This document shows positions 4,385 to 54,617 of a DNA stretch of 64,000 nt, piece after piece (the stretch's first letter is position 1; each line of letters opens with the position of its first letter). Origin of the DNA: Thermoleophilia bacterium (lineage in GTDB: Bacteria > Actinomycetota > Thermoleophilia > RBG-16-64-13); assembly GCA_026415615.1 (NCBI GenBank), contig JAOAGT010000002.1, forward strand, positions 448,545-512,544. The letters run 5' to 3'. Below the pieces are notes generated by a model. It had not been told where the DNA came from. It was given only the letters and a program-made list of their open reading frames with translations, and did no database searches. The translations under genes and the position numbers were made by a program.

Positions 4385-4443
4385 TGCTATCTCTAATTAT
4401 CGGCAACATGATATCTAGACTTGTCATGCTTTCGTTCGGCGAA

Positions 4444-4457
4444 GGTGTGGTATACTA
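4444..4457 (+). promoter_or_regulatory. extended -10 promoter element (TGgTATACT) upstream of tRNA-fMet
   Basis: gtggTATACT ends about 15 nt before tRNA nucleotide +1. Confidence 0.35.
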
Positions 4458-4471
4458 CGCAGCCCATACGG

Positions 4472-4548
<77 letters not shown>

Positions 4549-4553
4549 TAACG

Positions 4554-4584
4554 AAGCCCTGCTTTTGCAGGGCTTCCTATTTTC
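4554..4584 (+). terminator. rho-independent terminator after tRNA-fMet
   Basis: Hairpin GAAGCCCTGC-TTTT-GCAGGGCTTC followed by CTATTTT. Confidence 0.7.
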
Positions 4585-4669
4585 CGCATGAGTTGCAGCG
4601 GTCTCGCTGACGGGGCTATGGACTAGCATCGCTGTGTAGCAAGATCTTCATACCTTCGCCTCAGGCTCG

Positions 4670-24849: not shown

Positions 24850-24900
24850 CTGGTAGTTGGATAGGCGGCCCTCAACGGTAAAGGAGGCGGGAAGAGCGCG

Positions 24901-26367: not shown

Positions 26368-26429
26368 GCTTTGCTTCTGAGGCGAGGCCTGTTGGTGAGA
26401 CATTGGTCGTAGCAGAAGGAAGGAGCGAG

Positions 26430-27704: not shown

Positions 27705-27721
27705 GAAGGAGGTCGAAAGCC

Positions 27722-29212
27722 TTGGCACTTACTAAGGAAATGTATGAGGCGTTCGCAGGGGTAGTGGGGGAAGAGAATCTCTGCGACGATCCCGCCATGA
27801 TGGCTGCTTATTTCCGCACGGATTTTGCGGCGGTGGTGATGCCCAAGGACACTGCCGAAGTCCAAGCGGTCGTCAGATTGTGCAATAAGTTCAAGCTAAA
27901 GTTTAGGCCCATATGTACAGGCTGGACGGGAGTCTTCCAGCCGGGCAGCGTTCTGCTTGATCTGCGGCGGATGAACCGCATCATCGAGATCAACGAAAAG
28001 AACATGTATGCGGTAGTGGAGCCGTACGTGACTTCTGCCCAGCTGCAGGCTGAGCTGTTTAAGCGAGGGCTGAACACCAACATGAAGGGGGCAGGAGCCC
28101 AGTGTTCGGCCATGCTTCGGGGCCACGGACATCTCGATCAGTCGTGTGGCGCTGACGATCGCAATCACCTAGCTGTGGAGTGGGTGACTCCCGAGGGCGA
28201 GCTGGTCAAGATGGGATCCTGGGGCGCCATCGGTGAGTGGTTCTGTGGCGATGGGCCAGGCCCCTCTTTGCGCTCCCTTGTGTCCAGTGTGGTTCCGCCG
28301 AGCACCACTCCGGGCGTCTTCACCAAGGTGGCGATGAAGCTTTATCACTGGCCGGGGCCTGATAAGTACGCGCTGGAGGGCTACTCTCCCAAATATACGT
28401 TGCGGGAGTTTCCGCCCAACATGATGGCTCGGTACTACAGCTTCCCCACGCTTGAGAAGATGTGGCAGGCGGAGATTGCCATCGGCGAGGCGGAGATCGC
28501 TCTTGAGCTCATGGGCTTCAACGCGGCCATGGTGGCGGCGAATATCACCACCTGCAACGAAGAAGAAATGGCCATGTTTGAACGCCTCTCTAAGGAGGTG
28601 CAGGGGCCGGGCTTCTTTGTGATCATAGCTGGCGATTCTCCAGAAGACTTTGCCTACAAGAAAAAGGTCCTTGAGACTATCGTCAAGGAAAATGACGGGC
28701 AGTCGCTTAAGACAGTCGAAGATCCGGAGCTTGAGGGTATCCTGCTTACGCAGTGCACAAGAATCAGTGCATCAGTTCGGGAGACGTTCCGACCGGGTGG
28801 GTACTTCAAGTCGATTCCCATCATGGGTCAACGTGACCTTACTATTCGTTGGGCTGTAGGTGCTGGCAAGGCCAAGCTCCCGCTTATTGAGCAGGGTCTT
28901 ATTGCCGATGACGGTGGCGGATTCTTCGGCTGGGGAGTGGAGCACGGTCATCTCGGCAAGACGGAGATCTTCTGCAAGTTCAGTCCGCTTAATCCCGAGG
29001 CCTGGAAAGCGGTTAACAAGTGGCACCAGGAGCAGGTCCAGCGGGCGCTTGACGAAAAGTACTTTGCTCTCACCATGGGGCCGCAGGAAGAGATCGACAA
29101 GAAGGTTGGGCCCGCTCTCTCGAACTATCACTTGTGGTGGTACAAGGTGCTCGACGCCTTAGACCCCAACGGAGTGGTGCCTGACAAGGGCCTGAGCAAT
29201 CTTACGCCGTAG
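27722..29212 (+). CDS. FAD-linked oxidase-like protein (divergent, GlcE-like)
   Basis: The N-terminus resembles a FAD_binding_4 domain (AVVMPKDTAEVQAVVRLCNKFKLKFRPICTGW...). TTG start after GGAAGGAGG. Confidence 0.6.
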   Translation: MALTKEMYEAFAGVVGEENLCDDPAMMAAYFRTDFAAVVMPKDTAEVQAVVRLCNKFKLKFRPICTGWTGVFQPGSVLLDLRRMNRIIEINEKNMYAVVEPYVTSAQLQAELFKRGLNTNMKGAGAQCSAMLRGHGHLDQSCGADDRNHLAVEWVTPEGELVKMGSWGAIGEWFCGDGPGPSLRSLVSSVVPPSTTPGVFTKVAMKLYHWPGPDKYALEGYSPKYTLREFPPNMMARYYSFPTLEKMWQAEIAIGEAEIALELMGFNAAMVAANITTCNEEEMAMFERLSKEVQGPGFFVIIAGDSPEDFAYKKKVLETIVKENDGQSLKTVEDPELEGILLTQCTRISASVRETFRPGGYFKSIPIMGQRDLTIRWAVGAGKAKLPLIEQGLIADDGGGFFGWGVEHGHLGKTEIFCKFSPLNPEAWKAVNKWHQEQVQRALDEKYFALTMGPQEEIDKKVGPALSNYHLWWYKVLDALDPNGVVPDKGLSNLTP

Positions 29213-39818: not shown

Positions 39819-40143
39819 CCAGTTGTCTCCTTTAGCCTTCACATATGTGGTCTTGCGATCGGCCAAACCATAGGTCCTGATCAAGCTTCCATTATCCAGG
39901 ATTGGCTAGCTGTTTGAAGGCTCTTTTGTGACCGTAGTTGATCATCCAGTTAACGCGGGCGTACACTAGGCAAAGACCAGCCTGCGAAGGTGCAGAGCAA
40001 TCCAAGCGGTCTGCCGTGTCGAGCTCTTCTTGTCGTCTTGAGCTCTTCTATTGCCTGCCGGCGCGTAAGAATATCGACCGGCTGGTAGGGTTCCCGTAGT
40101 AAGATGGCCGGAGCTAAAAACACCGAAAGGAAGGTTCCAAGAG

Positions 40144-40554
40144 ATGCCGGTTGATGTAATTACCGCTGACACCCTCAACAAAGAGACCATTAAAGAAGCA
40201 CTGGACCCAGACTTTCCCAACGTCTTTGTTGACGAAGACGGGGATTTGGGGGTGAGGGACCTTTGCATCTGCTACCTGCTTCCGAACGTGGAGCAGAAGA
40301 GGCTGAGACTGCTCACTCTTTGGCATTTTAGGAAAGAGGTAGGGGAGCTCGAGAAGTATCTTTGCGCAAACCGCATAAATGTAGACTATGCCATCGTGCG
40401 GGCGGCTGTGGTGGGGAATAACCTTGCCATGACATACGATGTTTCTTTGGAGGGAGACGGAATATCTCGTCGGTCTCTGGTTCTTTTGATAAAGCGTTTC
40501 TGCTCTGCAGCCCTGGCTTCTGCCATGGAGTATGGGCAAGGTCTGCTTTCCTGA
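40144..40554 (+). CDS. hypothetical protein, possibly a YbjN-like (T3SS-chaperone-like fold) domain
   Basis: 136 aa with AAAGGAAGG RBS. The family assignment is by weak pattern only. Confidence 0.35.
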   Translation: MPVDVITADTLNKETIKEALDPDFPNVFVDEDGDLGVRDLCICYLLPNVEQKRLRLLTLWHFRKEVGELEKYLCANRINVDYAIVRAAVVGNNLAMTYDVSLEGDGISRRSLVLLIKRFCSAALASAMEYGQGLLS

Positions 40555-40650
40555 GATAGACAGAGGGAAAGAGCTCATCTGGCCGGGTATAAGAGCCCGA
40601 GGGAGGTTTGAAAAGAAAGGGCGCTGCGTAGCCAAGAGAGCGGCGCCGGC

Positions 40651-40689
40651 AAAGAGGAGCGGCCCGCCGATGGCGGGCCGCTCCTCTTT
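40651..40689. terminator. bidirectional terminator hairpin between convergent genes
   Basis: AAAGAGGAGCGGCCCGCC-GAT-GGCGGGCCGCTCCTCTTT. A-tract on one side, T-tract on the other. Confidence 0.7.
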
Positions 40690-40735
40690 GGTCTTAAGCC
40701 TTTTCCCGAGCCTCGGGACCGAAGGCTCCAGAGTT

Positions 40736-41587
40736 CTACTTGCTAAGCACAATGTCGCCCAGGTTGACAGACGTGAAAGTCCTTGCCTCTAGCACCTGGT
40801 CCTTGTAACCAGCCATTGAAACCGTGAGCTTGTACTTGGTATTGGCTGGCAGCCCGTCGAACTCAAAATCGCCGAAGCCGTCGGTGACTTTGGTTTGCTT
40901 GGCGCCAGTCGGATTCCCGTCCACATCAAGCTCCTCAAGCGTCACCGTCGCTCCCTTGGCGCACTCATCGGTGTCGCCAAGGACTACGCACCCGGCTATG
41001 AAGCTCTTGGGCAACCCGATATAGCGGACCTTCTCTTTTAGACCAAATTCGGGATGAAGCACCTCGGTCTGGCTTGAGGCAAGCAGTTTCGAGATGGCGC
41101 TGTTTGGATCATCCAGGTCGCCAAAGACAAGAGCTCCGGTGGGGCATGCCTCCACGCAGCGAGGCTCCTTCCACCCAGCATCCAGAAGGTGGGCACAGAA
41201 CGTGCATTTCTGGGGTAGCTGGGACTCCTCGTTCCAGAAGATCACCCTGTACGGGCAACGGTTAACGAGTTCCTTTTGGCCCTTGGCCTTGACGGGATCA
41301 ATGATCACTATGCCGTCGTCACGCTTGTAGACGGCGCCATCTCGCGAAGCCGCCACACAGGGGGCGTCATCGCAGTGCATGCAAGGGATGGCCGTATAGT
41401 CAACCTTGACCTTGGGGTACTGGCCCCGCTGGGTCTCAATGACGTTCATCCAAGTCTGCCCGGTCAGAGGCTGGGCCGCCGCATACGGGCTGTGATCATT
41501 GCCGCAATGCTCGTCCTTGCAGGCAATGAAGCAGTTGTAGCACCCAATACAGTGGGCGACGTCGATCACCATTCCGTACCTGGTCAT
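40736..41587 (-). CDS. molybdoenzyme small (beta) subunit: 3x[4Fe-4S] ferredoxin domain plus C-terminal Ig-like beta-barrel (BthL-like)
   Basis: CIGCYNCFIACKDEHC, CMHCDDAPCVAA and CTFCAHLLDAGWKEPRCVEACP, then a beta-sandwich tail. Immediately downstream of the alpha subunit, separated by 1 nt. Confidence 0.7.
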   Translation of the reverse strand: MTRYGMVIDVAHCIGCYNCFIACKDEHCGNDHSPYAAAQPLTGQTWMNVIETQRGQYPKVKVDYTAIPCMHCDDAPCVAASRDGAVYKRDDGIVIIDPVKAKGQKELVNRCPYRVIFWNEESQLPQKCTFCAHLLDAGWKEPRCVEACPTGALVFGDLDDPNSAISKLLASSQTEVLHPEFGLKEKVRYIGLPKSFIAGCVVLGDTDECAKGATVTLEELDVDGNPTGAKQTKVTDGFGDFEFDGLPANTKYKLTVSMAGYKDQVLEARTFTSVNLGDIVLSK

Positions 41588-41588
41588 C

Positions 41589-44093
41589 TTAGGCCTCCCA
41601 TCTGGTTATCTCGATCAAGCACGAGTTGGGTGCCATGCCCGGTGCATTCTTAGAGAGCAGTCTCGCCGGCGTGAGCAGGTTGACGCATCCGCCTCTGTCA
41701 ATGGCGCCAGGCTTACCGGGCTCCAGCGGGTCGTACTTGGCCGATCCTTCATATGAGTGAACAACGCCAGGCCGAACTCTCTCGGTAACTTCGGCGGCGC
41801 ACAGCACCGCAGCGCGGTCGTTAAACAGCTTCACGATGTCACCGTTCTTGATGCCTCTGGCCTCAGCGTCCCGCGGATGGATGCGCACGATCCAGTAGTC
41901 GTAGCCGTTCTTGCGCATCCGGTGGATGGGGATCTCTGACAGCCACGGCACATGGGTGTCGTGGTGAGTATGGAAGCTAAACCGCGGATGCGGGGATATG
42001 AGCTGCAACGGGTACTTCTTGGCTAGCTCAGAGGTATGCCCCTCCCAGCTTGGGATGTACTTGGGCATTGGCGCCCGCTCAGTGTCATCCGGGGTATGCG
42101 CCAGCAAGCTTTGCGACACGAACTCGATCTTACCGCTGTAGGTGCCAAGCTCGTGCGCCTTCTCGGTGCCGCGCTTGGGATTGGCAAAGTCAGGCGTGTC
42201 GCAAGGTCTGCCCTCGTAGAACCACCGCAGGGCTGGAGTGGGCTTGTAGTTCTCGATCTGCGGGACCACAAAGTAGCCCTTGCGCTTGAACTCCTCGAAG
42301 GATATGTACTTGGGCAGATCCGAGGCGTAGAACATCTTCTCGATCCACTCCTCGATGGTCTTGCCTTCGGTGTAATCCTCGAGGAAGCCAAGGCGTTCAG
42401 CAAGTCCGCAGAAGATGTCCCAGTCAGAACGTGACTCACCAAGCGGCTCGATGCACTTCTGCTGGTAAATAATGACGCGGTGGTTGCAGCTACCAGAAGC
42501 GTGGAGGGAGTATCCGCCCGAGCTTGCCCACTCGCTAATGTCGTTGCGCTCCAAGTTGGTGCACGCCGGCAGAATGACGTCAGCAAAGCGAGTCTCCGTG
42601 GACCACCAGCAGTCCTGGTTGACCACAAACTCCAACTTCGGGCTCTGATACATCCGGACCCAGCGGTTGGTCTCGGTCATAGTGGCGATGAATGCGCCCC
42701 CATACCGATAGAACATCTTCACCTCAGAGTGTCCCGGCAGCGGGTACACAAATTTGGTGAACTGCTGTTCGAGCGATCCGCCGCAGAAGCCCTCGCCCAT
42801 CCATTCGATGTGCCCATCAAGGATTGCTTCCGGCACAAGCAAGCGGTACACGCGCTGCTTAACCGGGTTAATCGCCTTCTTCTCAGCGATGAGGTTAAAC
42901 CCGCCGCTGGCGTATCCCGGGAAGTCAAGCTCGTAGTTGTACGGCGGCCCGTTAGTGGTGCCCCATATGCTGACTCCGGGCTTGCCCAAGCCTTGCATAG
43001 CTTGCAGGAAGACCAGCATCCGGTCGTGCTCGGTAGCGTAGGCTTGACGGCAGTGACCACCCTCGCCGCCTTTGGTGCCGCCTGCCAGGCAAGTGCGGTT
43101 GGCGGCCCACTCGCGAGCCAACGCAACGATGGTGCGGGCCTCGACTCCGGTGATCTCAGCTGCCCATCTGGGGTCCTTAGGTACGCCGTCTTCTTCGCCG
43201 AGCACATACTTCTTGAACTCATCAAAGCCAATAGTGCGATTGGCGATGTAGTCCTTGTCGTAAGTGCCCTCGGTAAGCCAGACATAGGCGATGCCCAGAG
43301 CCAACGCTCCCGTGGTGCCGGGCCGGTAAGCGATCCACTTATCTCCTACCGCAGCGCCGGTGTAGTTGTAGAACGGGTCGATGATAATCTGCCGAATGCC
43401 CTTTTCTTTGAACCAATAACGCCAGAGTGCGGACTCATTACCCCCGTAGATGCCGTGGGTGGAGTCGGCGTCGTTTCCCCAGTGGATAATGAGCGTGGTA
43501 TGCCTCAGTGTTTCCTCGAGCATGTCGTAATGCTCGGGGTTGCCGAGGCGCCAGTAGAAGCCCCAGGCGTGTGTGGCTCCCCAGTGCCAGCCTTCCCAGC
43601 TGTCTGGGTTGTCCAGGATGTCGGTAAAGCCGAGCATGTTGAAGAAGCGAGCCCACGCCCCGGTGCGATAGCCCAGGTTACCCCAGTTGTGATGCGAGGA
43701 AGCGCGGGACATGATGGCTTCGGGACCATAGGTCTCCCGAATCCGCTTCATCTCATTCGCAACTAGGTCCAGCGCCTCGTCCCAGCTGATCCTCACATAT
43801 CCGGACTTGCCCCGGTTTTGGGGATTGCGCTCACCGTTTGGATCGAAGTCAACCCGCTTCATGGGGTAGAGGATCCGGTCCTCAGAGTAGACGCGGGCTT
43901 TTTCCGTCAAGGTGAAAGGCGCAACACAGGCTTTACGTGGAGGCGTGTACTTCTTGCCTTCAACATCGATTACCCAAGACGGGGCGTCCGTCTCGTCAAA
44001 GACGAGCGGACGCACCCGTACTATCTTTCCATCCTTGACATGGACTCGGATTGGGCCGCCGGCAGTGCAGTTAATAAATGTCTGCTCCGACAT
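41589..44093 (-). CDS. molybdopterin (bis-PGD) oxidoreductase large subunit, pyrogallol-hydroxytransferase (AthL)-like; no N-terminal Fe-S motif, no Tat signal
   Basis: 834 aa. The N-terminus GGPIRVHVKDGKIVRVRPL...PSW...YTPPRK...YPMKRVDFDPNGERNPQNRG...SHHNWGN...DSWEGWHWG follows the transhydroxylase-family pattern. The Cys cluster of other DMSO-reductase-family enzymes is absent. AGGAGGG RBS. Confidence 0.7.
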   Translation of the reverse strand: MSEQTFINCTAGGPIRVHVKDGKIVRVRPLVFDETDAPSWVIDVEGKKYTPPRKACVAPFTLTEKARVYSEDRILYPMKRVDFDPNGERNPQNRGKSGYVRISWDEALDLVANEMKRIRETYGPEAIMSRASSHHNWGNLGYRTGAWARFFNMLGFTDILDNPDSWEGWHWGATHAWGFYWRLGNPEHYDMLEETLRHTTLIIHWGNDADSTHGIYGGNESALWRYWFKEKGIRQIIIDPFYNYTGAAVGDKWIAYRPGTTGALALGIAYVWLTEGTYDKDYIANRTIGFDEFKKYVLGEEDGVPKDPRWAAEITGVEARTIVALAREWAANRTCLAGGTKGGEGGHCRQAYATEHDRMLVFLQAMQGLGKPGVSIWGTTNGPPYNYELDFPGYASGGFNLIAEKKAINPVKQRVYRLLVPEAILDGHIEWMGEGFCGGSLEQQFTKFVYPLPGHSEVKMFYRYGGAFIATMTETNRWVRMYQSPKLEFVVNQDCWWSTETRFADVILPACTNLERNDISEWASSGGYSLHASGSCNHRVIIYQQKCIEPLGESRSDWDIFCGLAERLGFLEDYTEGKTIEEWIEKMFYASDLPKYISFEEFKRKGYFVVPQIENYKPTPALRWFYEGRPCDTPDFANPKRGTEKAHELGTYSGKIEFVSQSLLAHTPDDTERAPMPKYIPSWEGHTSELAKKYPLQLISPHPRFSFHTHHDTHVPWLSEIPIHRMRKNGYDYWIVRIHPRDAEARGIKNGDIVKLFNDRAAVLCAAEVTERVRPGVVHSYEGSAKYDPLEPGKPGAIDRGGCVNLLTPARLLSKNAPGMAPNSCLIEITRWEA

Positions 44094-44107
44094 GCGCTAT
44101 AGCCCTC

Positions 44108-45331
44108 CTAGTCGACTGGTGCTGCGTTCAGCAAGGCCATGTCCGTCGTTGCAAATCCATGCAGGAAGCTGTAGACGTCCCTTAGATGCTTGCTGAAGGG
44201 CACGTCGTCATCAGTTGTACCGTATCCGCCGAAGATGCCGCACGCGTGGTTGACAAACTCCACGCCGATTTGGTCGACAAAGGCCTTGACCAGCATTCCG
44301 ATCTTCGGATTGTAGTCGTGCTTTGTCTGGTACGACCAGGCACCCTTCCAGAGCAGCGCCCGAGCCGCCTCAAGCTTGGCCTGCATGTCGGCGATCTTCA
44401 TGGCGACATGGTGATGCTGAATGATGGGCTTTCCGCCCTGCACCCGCTTCTTAGCGTAGTCCAGAGCCTCTTCATAAATTGCCCTCACCGTGCCCAGGTT
44501 GGCAGCAGCGCCCAGGAGCCCAAACGGCGGTGGAACTCCTTGCGGGGTCTTGGACCAGTCTTTCTGCGGGCCTCCCCACTCGCCTTCGGTTCCCCAAGCC
44601 TCGCCTTCCTTACCTACGAGGTAGCGGGCCGGAATCCGAGCGTTCTCGAAAACTAGCTCAGCGTTGGCAAGCAGCCTCCTACCCAACTTGTTGTGGAACC
44701 GGCCGATCCGCAACCCTGGGGTGTCGTGCGGCACGAGGAAGCAGCTCAGGCTGGTGGAGATGGGGCCCTTCCTGTCGGTACGGGCATACAGGAAATAAAG
44801 CTTGGCGATGCCGCCGCAGGAAATGTAATGCTTAGTGCCGTTAATAATGTATTCGTCGCCTACTCTTTCGGCATAGGTTTGAATTGAGGCTCCCGGCTCG
44901 TCGTAGAGGAAGTGAGAGTCGGTTCCCGCCTCCGGCTCGGACCGCGCCAGACCCAGGAGGAAGGTGTCGTCTTCCAGGAACTTTGGCAACCACTCGTCGC
45001 GCTGTTCAGGTGTGAGCTCCCCGACAAGTCGTGGAGACTCGGTGTAGCAGCCGCGGATGATGGTGGCAAAGCCCTGGTCTGCCACTCCCAGTTCCTCGAG
45101 GACGATGCAGAGAGTAAGGTAATCCGCGCCTCCGCCTCCCCACTTCTCAGGGATGGCAAGAGTACGAAGACCAAGCTGCGAAGCCTTCTTGATCAGGTCC
45201 CACGGGACACAGTCAATCGGGTTCGGCCGCCGGTCGTACTCCATGGCCACGGGCTTCACCTCGTTCTCGGCGAAATCCCGCACCATGTCGCGGATCATCT
45301 GTTGTTCTTCGGTTAGATAAAAATCAACCAT
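44108..45331 (-). CDS. acyl-CoA dehydrogenase family protein
   Basis: ACAD N-terminal, middle and C-terminal domains are present (LTEEQQMIRDMVRDFAENEV..., YIINGTKHYIS, FGGYG). GGAAGGAGGA RBS. Confidence 0.85.
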   Translation of the reverse strand: MVDFYLTEEQQMIRDMVRDFAENEVKPVAMEYDRRPNPIDCVPWDLIKKASQLGLRTLAIPEKWGGGGADYLTLCIVLEELGVADQGFATIIRGCYTESPRLVGELTPEQRDEWLPKFLEDDTFLLGLARSEPEAGTDSHFLYDEPGASIQTYAERVGDEYIINGTKHYISCGGIAKLYFLYARTDRKGPISTSLSCFLVPHDTPGLRIGRFHNKLGRRLLANAELVFENARIPARYLVGKEGEAWGTEGEWGGPQKDWSKTPQGVPPPFGLLGAAANLGTVRAIYEEALDYAKKRVQGGKPIIQHHHVAMKIADMQAKLEAARALLWKGAWSYQTKHDYNPKIGMLVKAFVDQIGVEFVNHACGIFGGYGTTDDDVPFSKHLRDVYSFLHGFATTDMALLNAAPVD

Positions 45332-45605
45332 GCAATTCCTATCCTCCTTCCAGCACCGAGAGGCTGCCGCCGACGTTGGCTAGATCACCGGAGGTCCGGT
45401 GGTTGCTGTAGCTGAAGACCAGCCCAGCAACTAGCTCCATCATAGTACTTGTTGTTGCTGCGCGGGCCGTTTTAAGTCAACTTGTCATGACTTGGCCAAA
45501 CTATTACGGGAAGGTATGAATCCGGACCGCTGCCAGAGCTAGACGAATCTGGACTGCCGTCAGCACCAGATCAAGGTGGAATGTTGCCGCCACGAGACAC
45601 TCGGG

Positions 45606-46490
45606 CTAGCCCCGCTGGACAATGGCGCTCTTTATGTGGAGCATTAGGGCGCGGGCCGCTGCCGGGAGGGGCCGGTCGCGGGGATAGATAAGAGTAAGGT
45701 CTCGGTAGAGAGGACGTTCAAACGGGACCACTACCAGATCTTCAGCATTATCTGCGGTGGCAAGCATTTTTGGCATGGGAGCAACCCCAAAACCTTTGCT
45801 TACCAAAGCCTTGATCAGCTCTGGGTAATTGGCACGATAGGAGAAGCGAGGCTCCACGCCTGCTCGCCGCAGGGCGTCGGCTGCAATGTTCCCCGCATTC
45901 ATGGTGGTACGCGGGAGAAGTATCGATTCTCCAGCAAGCATCTTGAGCGGAACGCGGGGGAGGCGAGCCAACCGGTGGTTTCGCGGCACCACAAGCACTA
46001 TTTCTTCTGTAAGAAGATGCTGCGCAGCAGTGCGTGACGAACCCCAGGGAGTTATTACCGCGCAGTCGAGTTCCCCACGAATGACTGCCTCTTCGAGCTG
46101 AGCGTCATCCTTTTCCACGAGGTCTACACTGACATGGGGATAGGCTTCCAAGAACGAAACTAGAATAGGAGTAAGAAGCAGTGCCATGACGTTGCCGACG
46201 GCGCCAAAACGCACCGAACTGGATGTGGCTCCGGCCTGTTCGCGTATGAGAGCGATGGCCTCCTCGGTTCGGGCGACGATTGCTTGGGCCAAGGGCAATA
46301 AGAGCTGGCCGGCTGCGGTGCATTCCACGTGCCGTCCGTATCGCTCAAAGAGCTGAGCTCCCAGCTCACGCTCTAGTCGCGCTATCTGCCTGCTCAGGGT
46401 AGGCTGCGTGGAGTGCATAGCGCGAGCCGCCCGGCTGAAACTTCGGGCTTCGGCTACGGCAAGAAAGGATTTGAACAGCTCCAGGTCCAT
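45606..46490 (-). CDS. LysR family transcriptional regulator
   Basis: The N-terminal HTH (LELFKSFLAVAEARSFSRAARAMHSTQPTLSRQIARLERELG) plus the LysR substrate-binding domain. It is divergent from etfB. Confidence 0.9.
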   Translation of the reverse strand: MDLELFKSFLAVAEARSFSRAARAMHSTQPTLSRQIARLERELGAQLFERYGRHVECTAAGQLLLPLAQAIVARTEEAIALIREQAGATSSSVRFGAVGNVMALLLTPILVSFLEAYPHVSVDLVEKDDAQLEEAVIRGELDCAVITPWGSSRTAAQHLLTEEIVLVVPRNHRLARLPRVPLKMLAGESILLPRTTMNAGNIAADALRRAGVEPRFSYRANYPELIKALVSKGFGVAPMPKMLATADNAEDLVVVPFERPLYRDLTLIYPRDRPLPAAARALMLHIKSAIVQRG

Positions 46491-46640
46491 CTATGCAATA
46501 TGGTAATACTTCTTGCTAGCCATGAAAAGTTCCATACAAAACTCAACTTGCTGTTGGCATAGGGCTATCATGTATAAAGCCCGTTTCTGCGGGCGGGGGT
46601 CGTTTCCAGGTATGCCTTGAAAAAAAGGAATGGATGACTC

Positions 46641-47417
46641 ATGAACATTGTAGTTTGCGTGAAACAAGTTATCGACACCGAAGCCGAAAACAGGCTCAAC
46701 CCGGAGACGTGGCGCGTAGACCGCAGCGTCAATTGCATTCTCAACCCCTATGACGAGTATGCAGTGGAAGAAGCGCTAAGGCTTCAAGAGGCGCACGGCG
46801 GCCAGGTTACTGTGGTTTGCATGGGACCAGAGAAGGCTGCTGAGGCCGTGCGGAAGGCTCTGGCCATGGGAGCAGACAGCGCCGTGCTGGTGAGCGACGA
46901 AGCTTTGGCCGGTTCCGATGTGCAGGGTACCGCGTATGCGCTGGCGGAAGCTCTCAAGGGGCTAACCTTTGATCTCCTGATTTTCGGCAACCGTTCCACC
47001 GACGGCGAAACAGGGTGCGTACCTGCAGCTGTGGCCGAGCGACTGGGCATTCCGTTCTTGTCTTGCTTGTCCAAGGTCGAGGTCAACGGGAACACCCTAT
47101 CTGTCCATCGGGAAACAGACCAAGGCCATGTTGCGTATGAATGCCCGCTGCCGGCTGCCATTTCGGTGGTCAAGGGAATCAATGAGCCTCGGTATCCAAG
47201 CATCAAGGGCATCATGACCGCAAAGAAAAAGCCGCTCGACGTCAAGAATGTGGCGGCTCTTGGTCTGGACGCTGGCCAAGTAGGGGCTGCCGGGGCAAAG
47301 ACCAAGGTCCTGACAGCAACCGTTCCAGAGCCACGCAAGGCTGGGGTCAAGATTGAGGACGACGGTTCAGGCGGCAAGCGCATAGCTGAGTTCTTGGCTG
47401 GCGCCAAGCTCATCTAG
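46641..47417 (+). CDS. etfB: electron transfer flavoprotein beta subunit
   Basis: MNIVVCVKQVIDTE...NPYDEYAVEEALRL is the EtfB/FixA pattern. Confidence 0.9.
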   Translation: MNIVVCVKQVIDTEAENRLNPETWRVDRSVNCILNPYDEYAVEEALRLQEAHGGQVTVVCMGPEKAAEAVRKALAMGADSAVLVSDEALAGSDVQGTAYALAEALKGLTFDLLIFGNRSTDGETGCVPAAVAERLGIPFLSCLSKVEVNGNTLSVHRETDQGHVAYECPLPAAISVVKGINEPRYPSIKGIMTAKKKPLDVKNVAALGLDAGQVGAAGAKTKVLTATVPEPRKAGVKIEDDGSGGKRIAEFLAGAKLI

Positions 47418-47434: not shown

Positions 47435-48424
47435 GTGAGCAACAAGACTGGGATCCTGGTTGTAGCTGAGCCCGGCCAAGGCCGGCTGGCTAACGTTACT
47501 CTCGAAAGCATTACTCAAGCTCGGGTGCTTGCGGCGTCCCTGGGCGGGCCCGTGAGTGTGGCCGTGATCTCCTCTGAAGCGGCTCCTCTGGTGGCTCAGG
47601 CTGGACGGTTTGGGGCAGACAAAGTCTACGTGGTAGAGAGCCCCGAACTTAGCGTATTCCGGTCCGGCACGTTTGCTGATGCTGCCACGGCGGCGATCAA
47701 AGCGGCAGACCCGGCGGTGGTGCTCTTTTCTAATTCGAACGATGGTCGGGATGTGGCAGCAGCGTGTGCTGCTCGTCTGGGCGTAGGACTCTTGGTGGAC
47801 GTCACCGATTTGCAGGTGAAAGACGGGACGCTTCGAGCTTATCATCCGTGCTTTGGTGGGCGGATGATTGCTGAAAAAGAGGCCACTTCCGTTCCCGTCA
47901 TGGTCACGGTCCGGCCAAGCGCGTTTGCGCGCGAAGAGGCTCCTAAGGAACCCGAGGTTGTCCCGCTTGCTGTTGATTTTGGGCCGACAAGCCTCGCTGC
48001 AAAGATAGTGGATGTGGTCACCGAGAGTCTCGGGGAAATTGCCCTCGAGGAGGCTTCGGTCATCGTAGCCGGTGGACGCGGAGTGGGAAGCGCAGAGGGA
48101 TTTGGCGTCTTGCGCGAATTGGCCAAAGAGCTGGGGGCTGCGGTGGCAGCGAGCCGAGCTGTGGTGGATCTCGGTTGGATGCCTCACCAGAGCCAGGTTG
48201 GCCAGACGGGCAAGACCGTTTCGCCGCAGCTTTATATTGCCTGCGGGATTTCCGGGTCCATCCAGCACCGAGCTGGTATGCAGACTTCCAAATGCATCGT
48301 GGCCATCAACAAAGACCCCGAGGCGCCCATCTTTTCCATTGCCGACTTTGGCGTGGTGGGAGATCTCTTTGCTGTCGTGCCGGCGCTGACCGAGGAAATT
48401 CGTCGTCGCAAAGCGGGAGCCTAA
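47435..48424 (+). CDS. etfA: electron transfer flavoprotein alpha subunit
   Basis: The C-terminal FAD-binding region (...[19 protein letters not shown]...) is the EtfA/FixB pattern. Confidence 0.9.
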
Positions 48425-48488: not shown

Positions 48489-50180
48489 ATGACTCAAGAA
48501 CGAGAGGTAATGGAGGTCGATGTCCTCTATGTGGGCGGAGGCGTTGCCTCTCTAAGTAGCGCTCTTCACCTGTCAAATCTTATTAATGCTCACAACGCCA
48601 AGGGCGAGGGCAAGAAGCTTGATGAGGTTATGGTAGCGGTCCTCGAGAAGGGGGCCTACTTTGGAGCTCACGGCATTTCCGGAGCAGTGATGGCTCCTGG
48701 CCCGCTTAAAGAGCTGATACCCGACTACTTAGACAAAGGCGCCCCCATTGAGGGAGAGGTAACAAAAGAATCCATCTACCTTCTGACCGAGCGGGGCAAG
48801 ATTAAGTCTCCCATTACTCCTCCTCCACTTAATAACCACGGCAACGTCGTCATATCCATGGCGAAGATGAATCAATGGCTGGCTGGCCTAGTGGAGGAGA
48901 ACGGCGTTTACATGTTCCCCAGCTTTGCTGGAGTTGAGCTTCTCTACGACGGGGACAGGGTCATTGGAGTTCGCACTGGAGACAAGGGAGTTGGCCCCGA
49001 CGGGCAAAAGAAGCCCAACTATGAACCGGGAGCCGACGTCATCGCCCGGGTGGTCGTGTTAGGCGAGGGTTCGCGTGGAAGCTTGACCAAAGAGGTCATA
49101 AAGCGTTTCGGGCTTGATCGCGGCAAGAACCCGCCAGGATTTGAGGTTGGTGTAAAAGAGGTTTGGGAGATACCTGCTGGTCGTATCGAGCCTGGCGAAG
49201 TAATCCACACCATGGGGTATCCGCTCAAGAGCGATACTTTTGGCGGGGGCTTCATCTACGGTATGAAAGACAATCTGGTGTGCCTCGGCCATCTCACCAG
49301 TCTGGATTATTCAGATCCTTTCATTGATCCCCACCGCGAGTTCCAGCGTTTTAAGCTTCATCCTTTGGTGAGAGGACTACTGGAGGGCGGCAAGCTTGTC
49401 CAGTACGGGGCCAAGACTGCGCCAGTGGGTGGATATTACTCGATTCCCAAGCTCACCTTCCCTGGCGGTTTGCTAATTGGTGACGGCGCCAACCTCTTCA
49501 ACGCCCAGAAAATCAAAGGCGTGGATATAGCTATGCGGTCAGGAATGCTGGCTGCAGAGGTTATTTTCGCTGCACTGGTTAACGACGATTTTTCTGAGTC
49601 CCGCCTTGCGGCGTACGAGCAGGCCATGGCTGAGACCAAGGAAATGAAGGACCTGTACAAGGTGCGGAATTTCCATCAAGCCATGACGCGCGGGCTGTAT
49701 TTGGGCCTGCTTACCGCGGCTGCTCAGTATGTTCTGGGAGGGCGAGTACTTAAGAACAGGTTGCCTGCTACTCCGGATCATACCCACCTGAAAACTGTCG
49801 CGGAGAAGTACGGCACAACTACCCCGAGCCCCGAGGCGGTGCGCGACTTCAAGTATGACGGCAAGCTCACTTTTGACAAAGAGACAGACGTTTACTACTC
49901 GGGAACGGTTCACGAAGAAGCTCAGCCCTCTCATCTCAAGATAAAGAGCTTGGACATTTGCTACGGGGAGTGCGCTACACGTTATCAATATCCTTGCGTC
50001 AGGTTCTGTCCAGCCGGGGTCTATGAGATTGAGGTGGACGAGTCTACCGGGCAGAAGTCGCTCAAGATTAACTTCTCAAACTGCGTTCATTGCAAGACGT
50101 GTGATGTGAAGGATCCTTTCGAGAACATCCAATGGGTGCCCCCGGAAGGAGGAGGAGGTCCCAAGTACACAGTCGTGTAG
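48489..50180 (+). CDS. ETF:quinone oxidoreductase (ETF-QO / FixC-FixX fusion type)
   Basis: 563 aa. The N-terminal FAD motif VDVLYVGGGVASL and a C-terminal 4Fe-4S ferredoxin-like domain (CYGEC...CVRFCPAGVY...CVHCKTCD). Confidence 0.85.
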   Translation: MTQEREVMEVDVLYVGGGVASLSSALHLSNLINAHNAKGEGKKLDEVMVAVLEKGAYFGAHGISGAVMAPGPLKELIPDYLDKGAPIEGEVTKESIYLLTERGKIKSPITPPPLNNHGNVVISMAKMNQWLAGLVEENGVYMFPSFAGVELLYDGDRVIGVRTGDKGVGPDGQKKPNYEPGADVIARVVVLGEGSRGSLTKEVIKRFGLDRGKNPPGFEVGVKEVWEIPAGRIEPGEVIHTMGYPLKSDTFGGGFIYGMKDNLVCLGHLTSLDYSDPFIDPHREFQRFKLHPLVRGLLEGGKLVQYGAKTAPVGGYYSIPKLTFPGGLLIGDGANLFNAQKIKGVDIAMRSGMLAAEVIFAALVNDDFSESRLAAYEQAMAETKEMKDLYKVRNFHQAMTRGLYLGLLTAAAQYVLGGRVLKNRLPATPDHTHLKTVAEKYGTTTPSPEAVRDFKYDGKLTFDKETDVYYSGTVHEEAQPSHLKIKSLDICYGECATRYQYPCVRFCPAGVYEIEVDESTGQKSLKINFSNCVHCKTCDVKDPFENIQWVPPEGGGGPKYTVV

Positions 50181-50224: not shown

Positions 50225-50680
50225 ATGGCACGGCCCGAAGAACAGAAAATTGTGGAGATTTTTAAGGCCGCTAAGACCGGCGAAGATATTCTCGCAGCGT
50301 GGGCTGCTCAGCGGCCAGGGTACAAGCCCAGCGGCGCCGGCGACCCGAGCCTGGATTTCTGGGTAAAGCGCAGACCGGACATGCTGCATACCTTTGCCCA
50401 TAACCAGCTCACCCAGCTGCTTGATCGCGGCATCCTCGATCCGAAGACCCGTTACCTCCTGCTCGTGGGTCTCTACATGATGCAGGGTCATTACGACGGG
50501 GTTCTGCCGCAGGCCTGCAACGCCAAGGCTGCTGGTGCTACCGAGGAAGAGCTCATGGAAGTGGCTTTCTGCGTTTGCTACTCCGTGGGCAAGGCCAAAC
50601 TCCAGGAGACTGGCGCCTGCCTGGACAAGGTTTTCTCCAATCCGATGTTCCAGCAGATCAAGCGGGTCGGCGAGGAGTAA
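50225..50680 (+). CDS. carboxymuconolactone-decarboxylase / AhpD-like family protein
   Basis: The 151-aa helical protein has the CMD-family pattern (KTRYLLLVGLYMMQGHYDGV...FCVCYSVG). Confidence 0.7.
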   Translation: MARPEEQKIVEIFKAAKTGEDILAAWAAQRPGYKPSGAGDPSLDFWVKRRPDMLHTFAHNQLTQLLDRGILDPKTRYLLLVGLYMMQGHYDGVLPQACNAKAAGATEEELMEVAFCVCYSVGKAKLQETGACLDKVFSNPMFQQIKRVGEE

Positions 50681-50836: not shown

Positions 50837-51580
50837 ATGGTTGTGCGGGAAAAGCAAGTAAAGAGCATTTTGTCTCCCTCCAAGGTCTACGACTATGCGC
50901 TTAACCCGTACGTAGGATGTGAGCACGCATGCGCATACTGCTATGCCCGCTTCATGCGCCGGTTTACTGGTCACCGGGAGCCGTGGGGCGAGTTTGTGGA
51001 CGTGAAAACCAATGCGCCAGATTTGCTTCGCCGGGAAATTATGCGAAAGCCTGTGGGTACAGTGTGGGTGAGCGGGGTTTGTGATCCCTATCAGCCGCTT
51101 GAGCGCCAATACAGGCTCACGCGCCAGTGCCTTGAAATCTTGGTGGAGAACCAGTGGCCCATCTGTGTTCAGACTCGGTCTCCTCTCGTGTTGCGAGATC
51201 TGGACGTTTTGCGTCTGGGATCACGGTTGGAGGTCGGTTTTACGATCACCACCGGTGACGACGAAATCAGGCGCCTGTTTGAGCCTCGTGCATCGAGCGT
51301 GCAAGAGCGGCTGGAAGGTCTTGCAGTGCTACACGAGGCGGGAATAAAGACCTTCGCCATGATTGCTCCTATCTTGCCCGGCGCCGAGAAACTGCCCAAG
51401 TTACTCGCTGGCAAGGTAGATCACATTCTTGTGGACCGGCTAAACTACGACTACGGCAATTGGGTCTACAAACAGCACGAACTTGAGTACGCTCGCACAG
51501 ACGCTTACTTCGAGTCCGTTGCCAGAGAACTCGCGGCTGATTGCGCACGACTAGGCATTCCGTGCCGAGTGGTGTTCTAG
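50837..51580 (+). CDS. radical SAM protein (COG1533 / SPL-like family)
   Basis: YALNPYVGCEHACAYCYA is the CxxxCxxC radical-SAM cluster motif. Confidence 0.7.
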   Translation: MVVREKQVKSILSPSKVYDYALNPYVGCEHACAYCYARFMRRFTGHREPWGEFVDVKTNAPDLLRREIMRKPVGTVWVSGVCDPYQPLERQYRLTRQCLEILVENQWPICVQTRSPLVLRDLDVLRLGSRLEVGFTITTGDDEIRRLFEPRASSVQERLEGLAVLHEAGIKTFAMIAPILPGAEKLPKLLAGKVDHILVDRLNYDYGNWVYKQHELEYARTDAYFESVARELAADCARLGIPCRVVF

Positions 51581-51625
51581 TCGAACTCTAGCGGCTGTTA
51601 TGATGCCGGAGATGTCGAACAAACT

Positions 51626-54199
51626 GTGATGGAGAGTGGGGGTATGATCGCGCGCACTACGGCCTGGTCAGCGGGCCCCGGCTGCCACGGAGGGTGCGGG
51701 GTTCTAGCTTATGTTGAGGACGGCAGACTGGTAAAGGTGGAAGGGGATCCGGATCATCCCATCAACCGGGGACGGCTCTGCGCCCGGTGTCTGGCGATGC
51801 CCCAGTACATCTATCACCCGGATCGCCTACGCAGTCCCAGGATTAGAGTTGGCGAGCGCGGCGAGGGAAAGTGGAAAGACATCTCTTGGGAGGAGGCCTT
51901 CGACTATATAGAGGAAAGAATGAAGGCCATCCGAGACAAGCATGGGGCCGAAAGCGTGCTGTTTGCTATGGGCACCGGTCGTGATGTCGGGGCCTGGATC
52001 TGTTTGCTTGCTTACAACTATGGGAGTCCCAACGTAGTTTTTGCCCTATCCGGAATCGGATGCTACACGCCTCGTATTGTGGCCTCCGAGACAGTGTTGG
52101 GTGACTACTGCGTGTTTGACGGTGGGCAGTGGCTTCCGCAGGGACACGATGATCCGGCGTACCGAGTGCCGGAGTGCATCGTTATCTGGGGTTACAACAT
52201 TAACGCCTCTTGCCCAGACAATATCTTTGGTCACTGGGTGACCGATCTCATGAAAAAGGGCTCCAAGCTCATCACGATCGATCCCCGTCTTACCTTTTTT
52301 GCTTCGCGAGCCGACAAGTGGCTTCAGCTTAGGCCTGGTACAGATGGTGCCCTGGCTATGGGCTTTCTCAATGTGATCATCGAAGAAGGACTCTACGACA
52401 AGGAGTTTGTAGAGAAGTGGACAAATGCTCCCCATCTGATCCGGACCGACACAGGTACGCTCTTGCGCGCTTCGCACCTGGTTGCTGATGGCTCGCCTGA
52501 CGACTTTGTGGTCTGGGATCTTGCCGGTGGACGTCCTGCTATATGGGATTCGGCCAACGTGGAGTTTCGCAGTCCTGGGGTGACTCCTGCGTTGGAAGGA
52601 AGCTTTACCGTGCGTCTGGCTGACGGTTCCTCGGTTACCACTGAGACGGTGTGGTCGCTGTTCTGCAGGGAAGTCGCCAAGTATCCTGTGGAGGAGGTTG
52701 CGAGAATCACCTGGCTCAAGCCGGACGATATCAGAGAAGCTGCCCGTCTATATGCCACGAGCAAACCCGCCACCATCCAGTGGGGCGTGGCAATTGATAT
52801 GACTCCGGCCATAACTCCCACCTCAATGGCTATTGCCGACCTTTGGTGCATTACCGGCAACCTTGACGTGCCGGGGGGAAATGTGATTGCGCGCCCGGCT
52901 TTTGGGGCAGTGCCGTACGCTCTACCTGGGCAAAGGGGGCCTATCCGGCTGCCCGATGAAAGCATCGACGAAAAGCGCATAGGTCGAGACCGTTACGGAG
53001 CTCTAAGAGAGTTCATTTGGCGGGCCCACACCGATCTTGCGTTGGAACAGATCTTTACCGGAGATCCGTACCCGATTAAGGGAATGTGGATTCAGTGCTG
53101 CAACTTGGTAGGAGGCATAGGGTACGACCCGGAGCGATGGGTGAGGGCTTTGAAGAAGCTCGACTTTGTCGCTGTGGTGGACACTTTCATGACGCCTACT
53201 GCGGAGCTTGCGGACATCGTGCTACCCGCGGCTACTTTCTTAGAAAAGAACGGAGTGCGCAGCTGGTGGACTCCGCTTGAGGCCATTGTCAAGGTTGTTG
53301 AAGTGGAAGGGTGCAAACCGGACAACGAAATCAACTTTGAGCTTGCCAGGCGCTTTAATCCAAACATGAAGTGGAAGTCCTGCGATGAGCTTCTGGACGA
53401 GATCGTAAGTCCAGCGGGCGTGACCTTCAAAGAGCTTGCCGAGAAGGGCTGGATTCTTCCTCCTGATGGTCATCCGAGCGCTCCCTACCGCCGACACGAG
53501 CGCGGTTTACTTCGGCCCGACGGAAAGCCTGGCTTTAAAACTCCATCGGGCAAGGTAGAGCTCTACTCAGTCTTGCGGGAAAAATGGGGGTTTGAGCCCT
53601 TGCCACACCACGAGGAGCCGCCTTTTAGTCCGGTGGCGAGCCCAGACCTCTTCCAGCGATATCCGCTTATTCTCACCACTGGGAGGCGCTCTCCCGTGTA
53701 CTTTAACTCCGAGCATCGCAATATCCCTTGGCTTCGTGAGGCCGACCCCGACCCAGTGGTTGAACTTCATCCTGAGACTGCCGCTGCCCTAGGCATCGGC
53801 GATGGCGAGTGGGTCTGGATAGAGAACATGTTTGGGCGGTGTCGACTGAAAGCCAAGCTCACGCGTGTAGTGCCGCGCTGGCTAGCCTCTGCTACGCATG
53901 GATGGTGGTACCCAGAGAGAGAAGGTGCCGAGCCGTCGCTGCGGGGAGTTTGGGACTCAAGCACAAATCAACTGCTTCCTATGGGCTATCAGGGCAAAGA
54001 CGGATTGGGGACCCATGCCAAGTGCACCATCTGCCGGGTCTATCGGGCCCACACCGCTCCTCCCAGCGCCTATGCCATGCCAGAGGGCGGTGTCATTGGT
54101 GGAGTACTAAAGCCGAGATCGGTGCCTCATGGTGCGGCTCCAGGCCACGCCTCGGCGCCGGCCGGATCGGCGGGGCGGGAAGACAGAGAGGAGAAGTAA
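51626..54199 (+). CDS. molybdopterin/tungstopterin (bis-PGD) oxidoreductase catalytic subunit, cytoplasmic with no Tat signal; PsrA/PhsA-like N-terminus
   Basis: The N-terminal Fe-S motif CHGGC...C..C with KVEGDPDHPINRGRLCARC resembles the polysulfide/thiosulfate-reductase-type N-terminus. 857 aa. The start is ATG at 51626, or ATG at 51644 after GGAGAGTGGGGG. Confidence 0.8.
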   Translation: MMESGGMIARTTAWSAGPGCHGGCGVLAYVEDGRLVKVEGDPDHPINRGRLCARCLAMPQYIYHPDRLRSPRIRVGERGEGKWKDISWEEAFDYIEERMKAIRDKHGAESVLFAMGTGRDVGAWICLLAYNYGSPNVVFALSGIGCYTPRIVASETVLGDYCVFDGGQWLPQGHDDPAYRVPECIVIWGYNINASCPDNIFGHWVTDLMKKGSKLITIDPRLTFFASRADKWLQLRPGTDGALAMGFLNVIIEEGLYDKEFVEKWTNAPHLIRTDTGTLLRASHLVADGSPDDFVVWDLAGGRPAIWDSANVEFRSPGVTPALEGSFTVRLADGSSVTTETVWSLFCREVAKYPVEEVARITWLKPDDIREAARLYATSKPATIQWGVAIDMTPAITPTSMAIADLWCITGNLDVPGGNVIARPAFGAVPYALPGQRGPIRLPDESIDEKRIGRDRYGALREFIWRAHTDLALEQIFTGDPYPIKGMWIQCCNLVGGIGYDPERWVRALKKLDFVAVVDTFMTPTAELADIVLPAATFLEKNGVRSWWTPLEAIVKVVEVEGCKPDNEINFELARRFNPNMKWKSCDELLDEIVSPAGVTFKELAEKGWILPPDGHPSAPYRRHERGLLRPDGKPGFKTPSGKVELYSVLREKWGFEPLPHHEEPPFSPVASPDLFQRYPLILTTGRRSPVYFNSEHRNIPWLREADPDPVVELHPETAAALGIGDGEWVWIENMFGRCRLKAKLTRVVPRWLASATHGWWYPEREGAEPSLRGVWDSSTNQLLPMGYQGKDGLGTHAKCTICRVYRAHTAPPSAYAMPEGGVIGGVLKPRSVPHGAAPGHASAPAGSAGREDREEK

Positions 54200-54200
54200 G

Positions 54201-54617
54201 GTGTCGGATCACAGAGTGAATTCAGACGCCAGCGTCAGCCAGGGTGCACCCACGAGTGGTGAAACAAAGCCGCGTCGTGACAAGCAACCCGAGTATGGCC
54301 TTCTCATTGACTATGAATTCTGCACCGGGTGTTTTGCTTGTCAGGTGGCCTGTCAGCAAGAGCACCGCTGGCCGTCGGGATTGGGAGGCATTCGGGTGCA
54401 GGAGATAGTCCAAAATTTGCCGAATGATCGGGCCTACCTTACATATCTCCCCTTTCCGACCGAGCTCTGTGTCCTGTGTGCTGCACGCACTCGTAAAGGG
54501 CTTCAACCCGCATGCGTCCAGCACTGCATGGCTCGCTGCATGAAATATGGGCGACTGGAGGATCTCGTCAAGGAGATGACGAAGCCGCGGATGGTGTTAT
54601 GGGCGCCTCGCGCGTGA
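54201..54617 (+). CDS. small 2x[4Fe-4S] ferredoxin-like electron-transfer subunit
   Basis: CTGCFACQVACQ and CVLCAA...CVQHCMARC. GTG start 5 nt after GAGGAGAAG. The stop of the upstream Mo enzyme overlaps the RBS. The track ORF 54129 starts inside the Mo gene. Confidence 0.65.
   Translation: MSDHRVNSDASVSQGAPTSGETKPRRDKQPEYGLLIDYEFCTGCFACQVACQQEHRWPSGLGGIRVQEIVQNLPNDRAYLTYLPFPTELCVLCAARTRKGLQPACVQHCMARCMKYGRLEDLVKEMTKPRMVLWAPRA

Follow-up and report, generated by a model that had tools for sequence, protein, structure and literature searches.

Pelobacter acidigallici's pyrogallol-phloroglucinol transhydroxylase, AthL/BthL (PgtL; PDB 4v4c), is a two-subunit molybdenum enzyme. Its reaction is redox-neutral and gives no assigned role to the BthL Fe-S clusters; in extracts of Pelobacter an oxidant or added co-substrate is required before it begins. 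Here we analyse a relative of this enzyme in a stretch of 64,000 nucleotides (the window) from Thermoleophilia bacterium (NCBI GenBank assembly GCA_026415615.1, contig JAOAGT010000002.1, positions 448,545 to 512,544). The genes of an AthL-like catalytic subunit (alpha) and a BthL-like Fe-S subunit (beta) stand there in one operon behind the gene of a flavoprotein with the acyl-CoA dehydrogenase fold, below called ACAD. All coordinates refer to the 64-kb window, and the operon lies on its minus strand.

Several other described systems are close to parts of this locus. In respiring bacteria the AthL-family enzymes RhLS and DbhLS carry out a water-dependent net hydroxylation of phenols, pass the electrons to an acceptor and are followed by a dehydrogenase step; to our knowledge neither an ACAD nor an electron-transfer flavoprotein (ETF) is involved in these systems. 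The phenylacetyl-CoA:acceptor oxidoreductase PadBCD is a DMSO-reductase-family enzyme that acts on a CoA ester, and forms a three-subunit, membrane-anchored complex. RhLS is the resorcinol hydroxylase of Azoarcus anaerobius and DbhLS the 3,5-dihydroxybenzoate hydroxylase of Thauera aromatica AR-1 (Table in PMC10100899). The PGR-DPGC-TfD-TAL phloroglucinol pathway of Clostridium scatologenes is biochemically defined and uses enzymes of the SDR, cyclase, 3HCDH-like and BKACE families (PMC10470551). Finally, genome papers on Chloroflexi and Dehalococcoidia label AthL-like proteins 'pyrogallol hydroxytransferase', and in metagenome-assembled genomes (MAGs) from peat, sediment and aquifers such annotations are routine and serve as an argument for anaerobic polyphenol turnover. 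None of the papers searched ties pyrogallol hydroxytransferase to an ACAD or ETF in one operon.

In the window the order of genes on the minus strand is ACAD, alpha, beta. The ACAD/alpha junction reads TAG-14 nt-ATG, with a GGAGG overlapping the stop codon, and the alpha/beta junction reads TAA-1 nt-ATG. There is no terminator within the operon; a hairpin lies 48 nt past the beta stop codon, with an RNA fold of -45.6 kcal/mol (z=-6.4) that is equalled by none of 200 shuffles. ACAD is almost certainly co-transcribed with alpha and beta. Unlike in PadBCD, no third membrane subunit follows, as the operon ends in the terminator straight after beta. A scan for consensus promoters and terminators stayed at chance level and overlooked the hairpin, and one tRNA is the only match to Rfam in the window at the gathering threshold. 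A first-pass annotation of the same DNA, made by reading the sequence, had placed the three open reading frames (ORFs) and their 14 nt and 1 nt gaps exactly where we find them. It had also put a LysR gene and an etfBA/ETF-QO operon upstream. Both are present, but the LysR gene shares its strand with the ACAD operon and is transcribed divergently from etfB, and the etf operon has one more gene at its end, coding for a carboxymuconolactone-decarboxylase-like (CMD-like) protein.

Judged by predicted domain architecture and metal ligand, the alpha/beta pair belongs to the AthL/BthL family, which counts more than 6000 proteins at E<1e-50. Alpha matches PF21423 AhtL-like_1st (E=7.8e-23), Molybdopterin and Molydop_binding, while PF04879, the Fe4S4 domain, is not matched in the Pfam scan. 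Its best solved structure is the large subunit of pyrogallol hydroxytransferase (4v4c_A; full-length, E=2.1e-277, 52% identity). Residues 1-70 hold only Cys9 and Cys56, without a Cys cluster or a twin-arginine motif, and the N-terminus MSEQTFINCTAGGPIRVHV, read by eye rather than with a predictor, has no RR motif and no hydrophobic stretch. Like AthL, alpha is predicted to be cytoplasmic, without the FS0 cluster and without a Tat signal. Beta aligns with 4v4c_B over residues 1-266 (E=1.9e-62). Its cysteines 13, 16, 19, 23, 69, 72, 77, 111, 128, 131, 144 and 148 fall into three groups of four, and these 12 residues would bind three [4Fe-4S] clusters, followed by a predicted C-terminal beta domain of the CarboxypepD_reg type, the same set as in BthL.

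For comparison we scanned one genome per species, which gave 80 loci with close relatives of alpha. The AthL sequence, reconstructed by way of the HMMER alignment, was put into one alignment with 97 alphas of the related loci. In a neighbour-joining tree there are three AthL-like clades: AthL proper, where AthL groups with L052_107, L016_4907 and L056_6429; a large sister clade that includes the window alpha and whose members are 62-83% identical to it; and a set of 35-45% identical paralogs. On this tree the window alpha is not an ortholog of the characterised AthL, and its clade is best described as a large, widespread and uncharacterised sister of the Pelobacter transhydroxylase. The first-pass annotation had called alpha a protein of the pyrogallol-phloroglucinol transhydroxylase type lacking an N-terminal Cys cluster and Tat signal, and beta a protein with three 4Fe-4S motifs and a C-terminal barrel; the domain matches, the structures and the tree all bear this out. 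A mis-assignment, with alpha belonging to a different DMSO-reductase subfamily and carrying a cryptic Fe-S site, was also considered, and is ruled out by the Pfam matches and the absent Cys cluster.

The predicted Mo ligand is Ser165 (AthL Ser175), which lies in NPDSWEGWHW, a stretch with the D-S-W-E-G-W of AthL, and is invariant across all three clades. We take the pocket of AthL to be formed by His144, Arg153, Asp174, Tyr404, Tyr560, Trp176, Trp354 and Phe468, a list that reportedly goes back to Messerschmidt et al. in 2004. Residues H134, R143, D164, S165, W166, Y394, F436 and Y528 of alpha correspond to AthL His144, Arg153, Asp174, Ser175, Trp176, Tyr404, Phe468 and Tyr560, so that seven of the eight pocket residues are kept. 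The exception is Trp354, which is Glu344 in alpha and also Glu in most of its clade. The full set of noted changes against AthL is W354E, H362Y, A469C, I561S and D563H. Because alpha belongs to a large sister clade with a differing pocket, pyrogallol should not be assumed as its substrate.

The link between ACAD and the Mo enzyme is restricted to one part of this clade. Among the 80 loci, ACAD stands directly upstream of alpha-beta only in ten (L001, L004, L005, L006, L010, L012, L013, L014, L019 and L040), all from Thermoleophilia, Gaiellales, other Actinomycetota or unclassified MAGs. There the alphas are 75-83% and the ACADs 66-84% identical to those of the window. With the window included, the 11 loci have a fixed gene order with gaps of 14-88 nt. 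A LysR gene is found at the same position in eight of the ten (L004, L005, L010, L012, L013, L014, L019, L040), and etfB or etfA is near in nine, the etfB copies being 70-77% identical. These co-occurrence counts are from tblastn of the window proteins; a simple ORF caller is noisy in these GC-rich loci. The adjacency to ACAD, LysR and the ETF system noticed in the first-pass annotation is thus a recurrent arrangement. The 11 ACAD-linked alphas are monophyletic, and their sister group is from Dehalococcoidales (L007-L009, L011) and has no ACAD. The pocket string is the same in the ACAD-linked alphas and in the ACAD-less L007-L009, whose alphas are surrounded by phloroglucinol-pathway genes.

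Neighbouring ORFs were clustered and representatives annotated with Pfam. Outside the ACAD subclade the commonest neighbours of alpha are SDR, Cyclase PF04199, 3HCDH-like, BKACE PF05853, cupin, ADP-forming acetyl-CoA synthetase, thiolases and TRAP transporters. At least two of SDR, Cyclase PF04199, 3HCDH and BKACE PF05853 are found beside alpha in 18 of the 80 loci, within the fetched flank. Relatives of alpha/beta in Dehalococcoidales, Desulfobacterota, Neomoorella and other groups adjoin the same families that make up the Clostridium scatologenes pathway (PMC10470551). Since the context of the clade is a phloroglucinol pathway and the pocket is unchanged, the Mo enzyme would, in the simplest interpretation, act on the same kind of free phenol with and without ACAD.

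Some related loci differ in their set of subunits. A large subclade of alphas (65-72% identical) from Dehalococcoidaceae/Dehalococcoidales (L015, L017-L038, L041-L046, L068) has no adjoining beta gene; the conserved neighbours here are a divergent Exo_endo_phos protein (exonuclease III-like), a HAD hydrolase and other ORFs, one of them UvrC-like by eye. Two or three paralogous AthL-like pairs of different clades occur in each of L052 (Neomoorella sulfitireducens), L016, L056 and L061, and L016 reads alpha-beta-alpha, lacking a further beta. A single phloroglucinol-pathway cluster in L052 has an AthL-proper pair on one side and a window-clade pair on the other, which suggests that different phenols feed into the same pathway there. 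In L063, a Desulfobacteraceae MAG, a different ACAD (4079-5242 of that locus, plus strand) lies 104 nt upstream of a window-clade alpha. It has the canonical Glu in a VEGS motif and is 27% identical to the window ACAD, and it represents an independent ACAD-AthL adjacency.

The ACAD of the window is itself unusual. Its best match in PDB is MCAD (E=1.5e-48), and the solved structures closest to it, those of MCAD, SCAD and Bcd, share about 30% identity with it. When the AF2 model (pLDDT 88.8) is compared with MCAD and SCAD using Foldseek, TM is 0.85-0.90 at 29-31% identity, and the flavin-motif regions SEPEAGTD and IFGGYG can be recognised by eye. However, the canonical base is lost: MCAD E376 aligns to His391, with His391-Gly392 at the canonical Glu-Gly position. 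The model shows helix 378-389, then the loop LHGFAT and then another helix, an arrangement like that around the Y-E-G-T loop of MCAD. As the modelled loop mirrors YEGT, His391-Gly392 is probably the equivalent of Glu376-Gly377. An ungapped profile alignment, that is one without a 2-residue gap, shifts the register and still places no acidic residue in the segment. The position of the Glu in LCAD/IVD-type enzymes (MCAD Thr255) is Thr or Phe in ACAD, depending on the alignment, and the family alignment has no conserved acid at residues 246-275 or 386-396. By domains, model and alignments ACAD has a true three-domain ACAD fold, yet it is without the catalytic Glu at either known position. Since 115 of 116 homologs, reaching down to 45% identity, keep His391, the protein belongs to a distinct His-type ACAD subfamily and is not a decayed copy.

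Compared with canonical ACADs and with more distant His-type homologs, ACAD also carries an insertion of about 15 residues, GTEGEWGGPQKDWSKTPQGV, within residues ~245-270 (pLDDT ~60). Protein lengths suggest that homologs of at least 66% identity share it, including the one in L002, which is not linked to AthL.

A C-terminal His is also found in the group-D flavin monooxygenases of the DszC/C2 type. A reading of ACAD as such an O2-dependent enzyme was rejected, both because Pfam, NCBIfam and Foldseek place it closest to ETF-linked ACADs, the DszC model reaching 35 bits, and because one of its homologs sits in a glycyl-radical-enzyme operon.

The genomic contexts of ACAD homologs were looked up in nine cases. 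At 84% identity (L001) the homolog is in the same AthL operon. Further away it is accompanied by CMD-like, aldehyde dehydrogenase and OYE genes (L002, 69%; L088, 57%), by a glycyl-radical enzyme, its activase and a CMD-like protein (L003, 57-59%), by DHDPS-family and Tct transporter genes (L084, L090), by an enoate-reductase-like OYE and AOR (L085), or by CMD-like and M24 peptidase genes (L087). In only one of the nine (L089, 51%) are its neighbours an acyl-CoA mutase and a pair of family-III CoA transferases. The first-pass annotation had named conservation of ACAD next to other genes as something that would speak against its proposal, and this is what we see: homologs at 45-69% identity adjoin quite different genes. 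The most frequent companion of the ACAD-His genes is the CMD-like protein (L002, L003, L087, L088). The His-type ACADs, often with a CMD-fold protein, are an uncharacterised subfamily that is widespread in MAGs of anaerobes.

Next to the operon structure, a conserved motif connects ACAD with the ETF system. Three conserved boxes stand out when the stretches between LysR and ACAD and between etfB and LysR are aligned for eight loci; they run in opposite orientation in the two regions, and the conserved blocks extend over 7 loci. They form a 70-nt composite motif, GTAATAS-N12-ATGAMAAGTT-N33-CTATSATG, which was searched for as GTAATA-N13-ATGANAAGTT-N33-CTATNATG. The window has exactly two matches, with identical spacings, where 0 are expected and none is found in 100 shuffles, and each copy is directed at its own operon, one at ACAD and one at etf. 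A relaxed motif is present upstream of ACAD and/or etfB in L001, L004, L005, L014, L019 and L040 and in no other locus; specifically upstream of ACAD it is found in L001, L004, L005, L014 and L040, and in L019 one copy lies ahead of the CMD-like gene. In L005 the motif is retained although phage and toxin genes are inserted between LysR and ACAD. A search for a T-N11-A dyad in the two intergenic regions found none. The conserved motif is a candidate promoter/operator element, and because it precedes both operons and recurs in relatives, it suggests that ACAD-alpha-beta and the etfBA, ETF-QO and CMD-like genes may be one regulon.

For MCAD and SCAD the partners are ETF and ETF-QO. The signs of such a link for the window ACAD are genomic only: EtfAB and ETF-QO are encoded adjacently, this is conserved, and the upstream motif is common to both operons. 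It differs from MCAD and SCAD in the His that replaces Glu376, the absent LCAD/IVD-position Glu, the insertion, and the lack of beta-oxidation or CoA-activation genes near it. In three relatives (L004 3660-5690, L019 3482-5554, L040 3613-5640) the place of ETF-QO is taken by a ~680-aa Fe-S oxidoreductase with Fer4 and two CCG domains, which in L019 also has a weak NarI-like match. We interpret this protein as a non-orthologous replacement, presumably another kind of ETF:quinone oxidoreductase. If so, it is the electron transfer from ETF to quinone that would be the conserved function.

Taken together we propose, with confidence somewhat above even, the following model. Alpha/beta would be a cytoplasmic enzyme with a Ser-ligated bis-molybdopterin guanine dinucleotide cofactor that moves or adds a hydroxyl on a free polyhydroxybenzene. 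The ancestral role of its clade would be to feed the phloroglucinol pathway, and in one lineage of Actinomycetota the pair would have been placed in an operon behind the atypical ACAD-fold FAD protein. On one and the same inducible route of aromatic catabolism, this flavoprotein may oxidise a small-molecule intermediate and the Mo enzyme carry out the hydroxyl-transfer step, and two electrons would then flow from ACAD through EtfAB and ETF-QO to menaquinone.

A number of observations weigh against this model. Genes for cyclase, BKACE and 3HCDH, found around other members of the clade, are absent from the window and from +/-10 kb of all ACAD-linked loci, where a single SDR in L005 is the sole gene of a phloroglucinol family; without pathway genes nearby, it is not seen what this organism would do with a phloroglucinol product. 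The pocket departs from that of AthL at W354E, H362Y, A469C and D563H, so the actual phenol may be another. Transhydroxylation, being redox-neutral, does not by itself explain why the enzyme is co-regulated with an electron-transfer chain. Further, the CoA transferases and mutase in L089 leave room for a CoA ester as substrate of the flavoprotein.

In a rival reading, attractive because transhydroxylation is redox-neutral, ACAD would have no small-molecule substrate here and would instead relay electrons between the [4Fe-4S] clusters of beta and EtfAB/ETF-QO. Electrons would leave Mo by way of beta's three clusters, reach the flavin of ACAD, and go on via EtfAB/ETF-QO to menaquinone. The outcome could be a quinone-linked phenol hydroxylase, and a link to the quinone pool would suit the net-hydroxylation mode of RhLS and DbhLS; alternatively the chain could generate or re-poise the tetrahydroxybenzene co-substrate and the redox state of Mo. 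The tight translational coupling of ACAD to alpha/beta, the motif in common with the ETF-to-quinone chain, the loss of the substrate-deprotonating Glu, BthL clusters that have no assigned role in a redox-neutral reaction, and the oxidant or co-substrate that Pelobacter extracts require all agree with such a relay. However, the His-type ACADs also stand beside enzymes without any BthL-like subunit (the glycyl-radical enzyme, aldehyde dehydrogenase/OYE, DHDPS-family proteins, CoA transferases with a mutase), which argues that ACAD has a substrate of its own, and sister enzymes with the same pocket manage without an ACAD. We know of no ACAD that does nothing but relay electrons to an Fe-S protein, and consider both the relay and this path of electrons unlikely. 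Equally doubtful is a looser connection, where a plain pyrogallol-type transhydroxylase and an ACAD/ETF system serving a downstream or unrelated oxidation, for instance of a short acyl intermediate, are co-located and co-induced merely as parts of a general catabolic island for plant aromatics. The window is indeed rich in AOR, TRAP transporter, GlcD/CCG-type dehydrogenase, corrinoid and URO-D-like genes and has an acetylene-hydratase-like Mo enzyme, and the ACAD-His homologs occur in many different contexts. Against this stand the short gaps and the fixed order across 11 loci, at the identities given above, and the survival of the motif after mobile genes entered between LysR and ACAD in L005.

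The first-pass annotation had favoured a different substrate, an aryl- or acyl-CoA thioester on which both the Mo enzyme and ACAD would act. Phenylacetyl-CoA:acceptor oxidoreductase offers a precedent, the closest structures of the ACAD-fold protein in this operon are genuine acyl-CoA dehydrogenases, and one distant homolog (L089) is in a CoA-transferase/mutase context. For the Mo enzyme itself, adjacency to ACAD is the one positive sign, and no change in the pocket is specific to the ACAD-linked alphas, which equal their ACAD-less sisters; the ancestral context of the clade is the free-phenol pathway. The 64-kb window has no gene for a CoA ligase, CoA transferase or enoyl-CoA hydratase, its sole CoA-pathway gene being a thiolase at 1.3-2.5 kb, and none was noted beside ACAD in the linked loci examined. 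As ACAD also lacks the catalytic Glu, we regard a CoA-thioester substrate of the Mo enzyme as very improbable, and prefer the model of a free-phenol enzyme that shares one inducible route with an ACAD of its own substrate.

The arrangement in Actinomycetota, where an ACAD-fold protein without the catalytic glutamate ties an AthL-type enzyme to an ETF-to-quinone chain, gives a concrete way to test the role of the Fe-S clusters of transhydroxylases, and whether some AthL-type enzymes respire phenols and do not isomerise them. Were ACAD the redox partner of beta, these 'orphan' clusters would gain a function and a missing route to the tetrahydroxybenzene co-substrate would be supplied. If on the other hand the plain reading holds, the locus is a modest extension of known polyphenol catabolism.

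Table 1. Features of the ACAD-alpha-beta operon and of the adjoining regulator and etf operon (window coordinates).
Feature	Position	Strand	Length	Description
Terminator-like hairpin	40652-40688	-		Perfect 19-bp GC-rich stem, then UUUG; marks operon end
Beta (BthL-like Fe-S subunit)	40736-41587	-	283 aa	Fer4_11 + CarboxypepD_reg; 4v4c_B
Alpha (AthL-like Mo-bisMGD catalytic subunit)	41589-44093	-	834 aa	PF21423 + PF00384 + PF01568; 4v4c_A
ACAD	44108-45331	-	407 aa	ACAD-fold flavoprotein, His-type subfamily; Pfam Acyl-CoA_dh_N/M/1
Composite motif, copy 1	45438-45507	-		106 nt upstream of ACAD start codon
LysR-type regulator	45606-46490	-		HTH_1 + LysR_substrate; between the two motif copies
Composite motif, copy 2	46503-46572	+		68 nt upstream of etfB, in the direction of the etf operon
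etfB (electron-transfer flavoprotein beta subunit)	46641-47417	+		PF01012
etfA (electron-transfer flavoprotein alpha subunit)	47435-48424	+		PF01012 + PF00766
ETF-QO (ETF:quinone oxidoreductase)	48489-50180	+		PF21162 ETFQO_UQ-bd + PF05187 Fer4_ETF_QO
CMD-like gene	50225-50680	+	151 aa	Pfam CMD E=3.8e-4; weak PDB matches 2cwq, 2af7

Downstream of the ACAD operon there is an 850-nt stretch (39885-40735) without homology among the related loci, and its sole gene content is a weak YbjN-like ORF (40144-40554, plus strand; Pfam E=8e-5).

On the other side, past the etf operon, three genes lie on the plus strand at 50837-54617. The first is a radical-SAM gene (50837-51580), the next codes for a second Mo enzyme, which has an Fe4S4 domain (51626-54199), and the last for a small Fer4 protein (54129-54617). 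For the Mo enzyme the best PDB match is acetylene hydratase (E=3.7e-82), a trait used for recognising the catechol-dehydroxylase class (PMC7028382). Homologs with 37-75% identity are also found near AthL-like alphas, directly upstream in L020, L049 and L081, and further in L052, L054, L056, L069 and L077, with one in the ACAD-linked L013.

A GlcD-like FAD_binding_4 protein together with a CCG Fe-S subunit is encoded near the ACAD/etf module in L001 (1003-5280), L006 (5904-8412) and L089 (3435-6152). The window has two GlcD-like copies, as L001 also has, and the CCG subunit at 23119-29212 (plus strand), with a fumarate-reductase-like flavoprotein ahead of them, about 15 kb from the ACAD/etf module. 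A URO-D-like methyltransferase-type protein (20837-22093, plus strand) and a B12-binding corrinoid protein (60881-61534, minus strand), both typical components of anaerobic O-demethylases, are found as well. They fit a theme of methoxylated aromatics, and a similar URO-D-like/corrinoid pair lies beside the ACAD-His/CMD module in L088.

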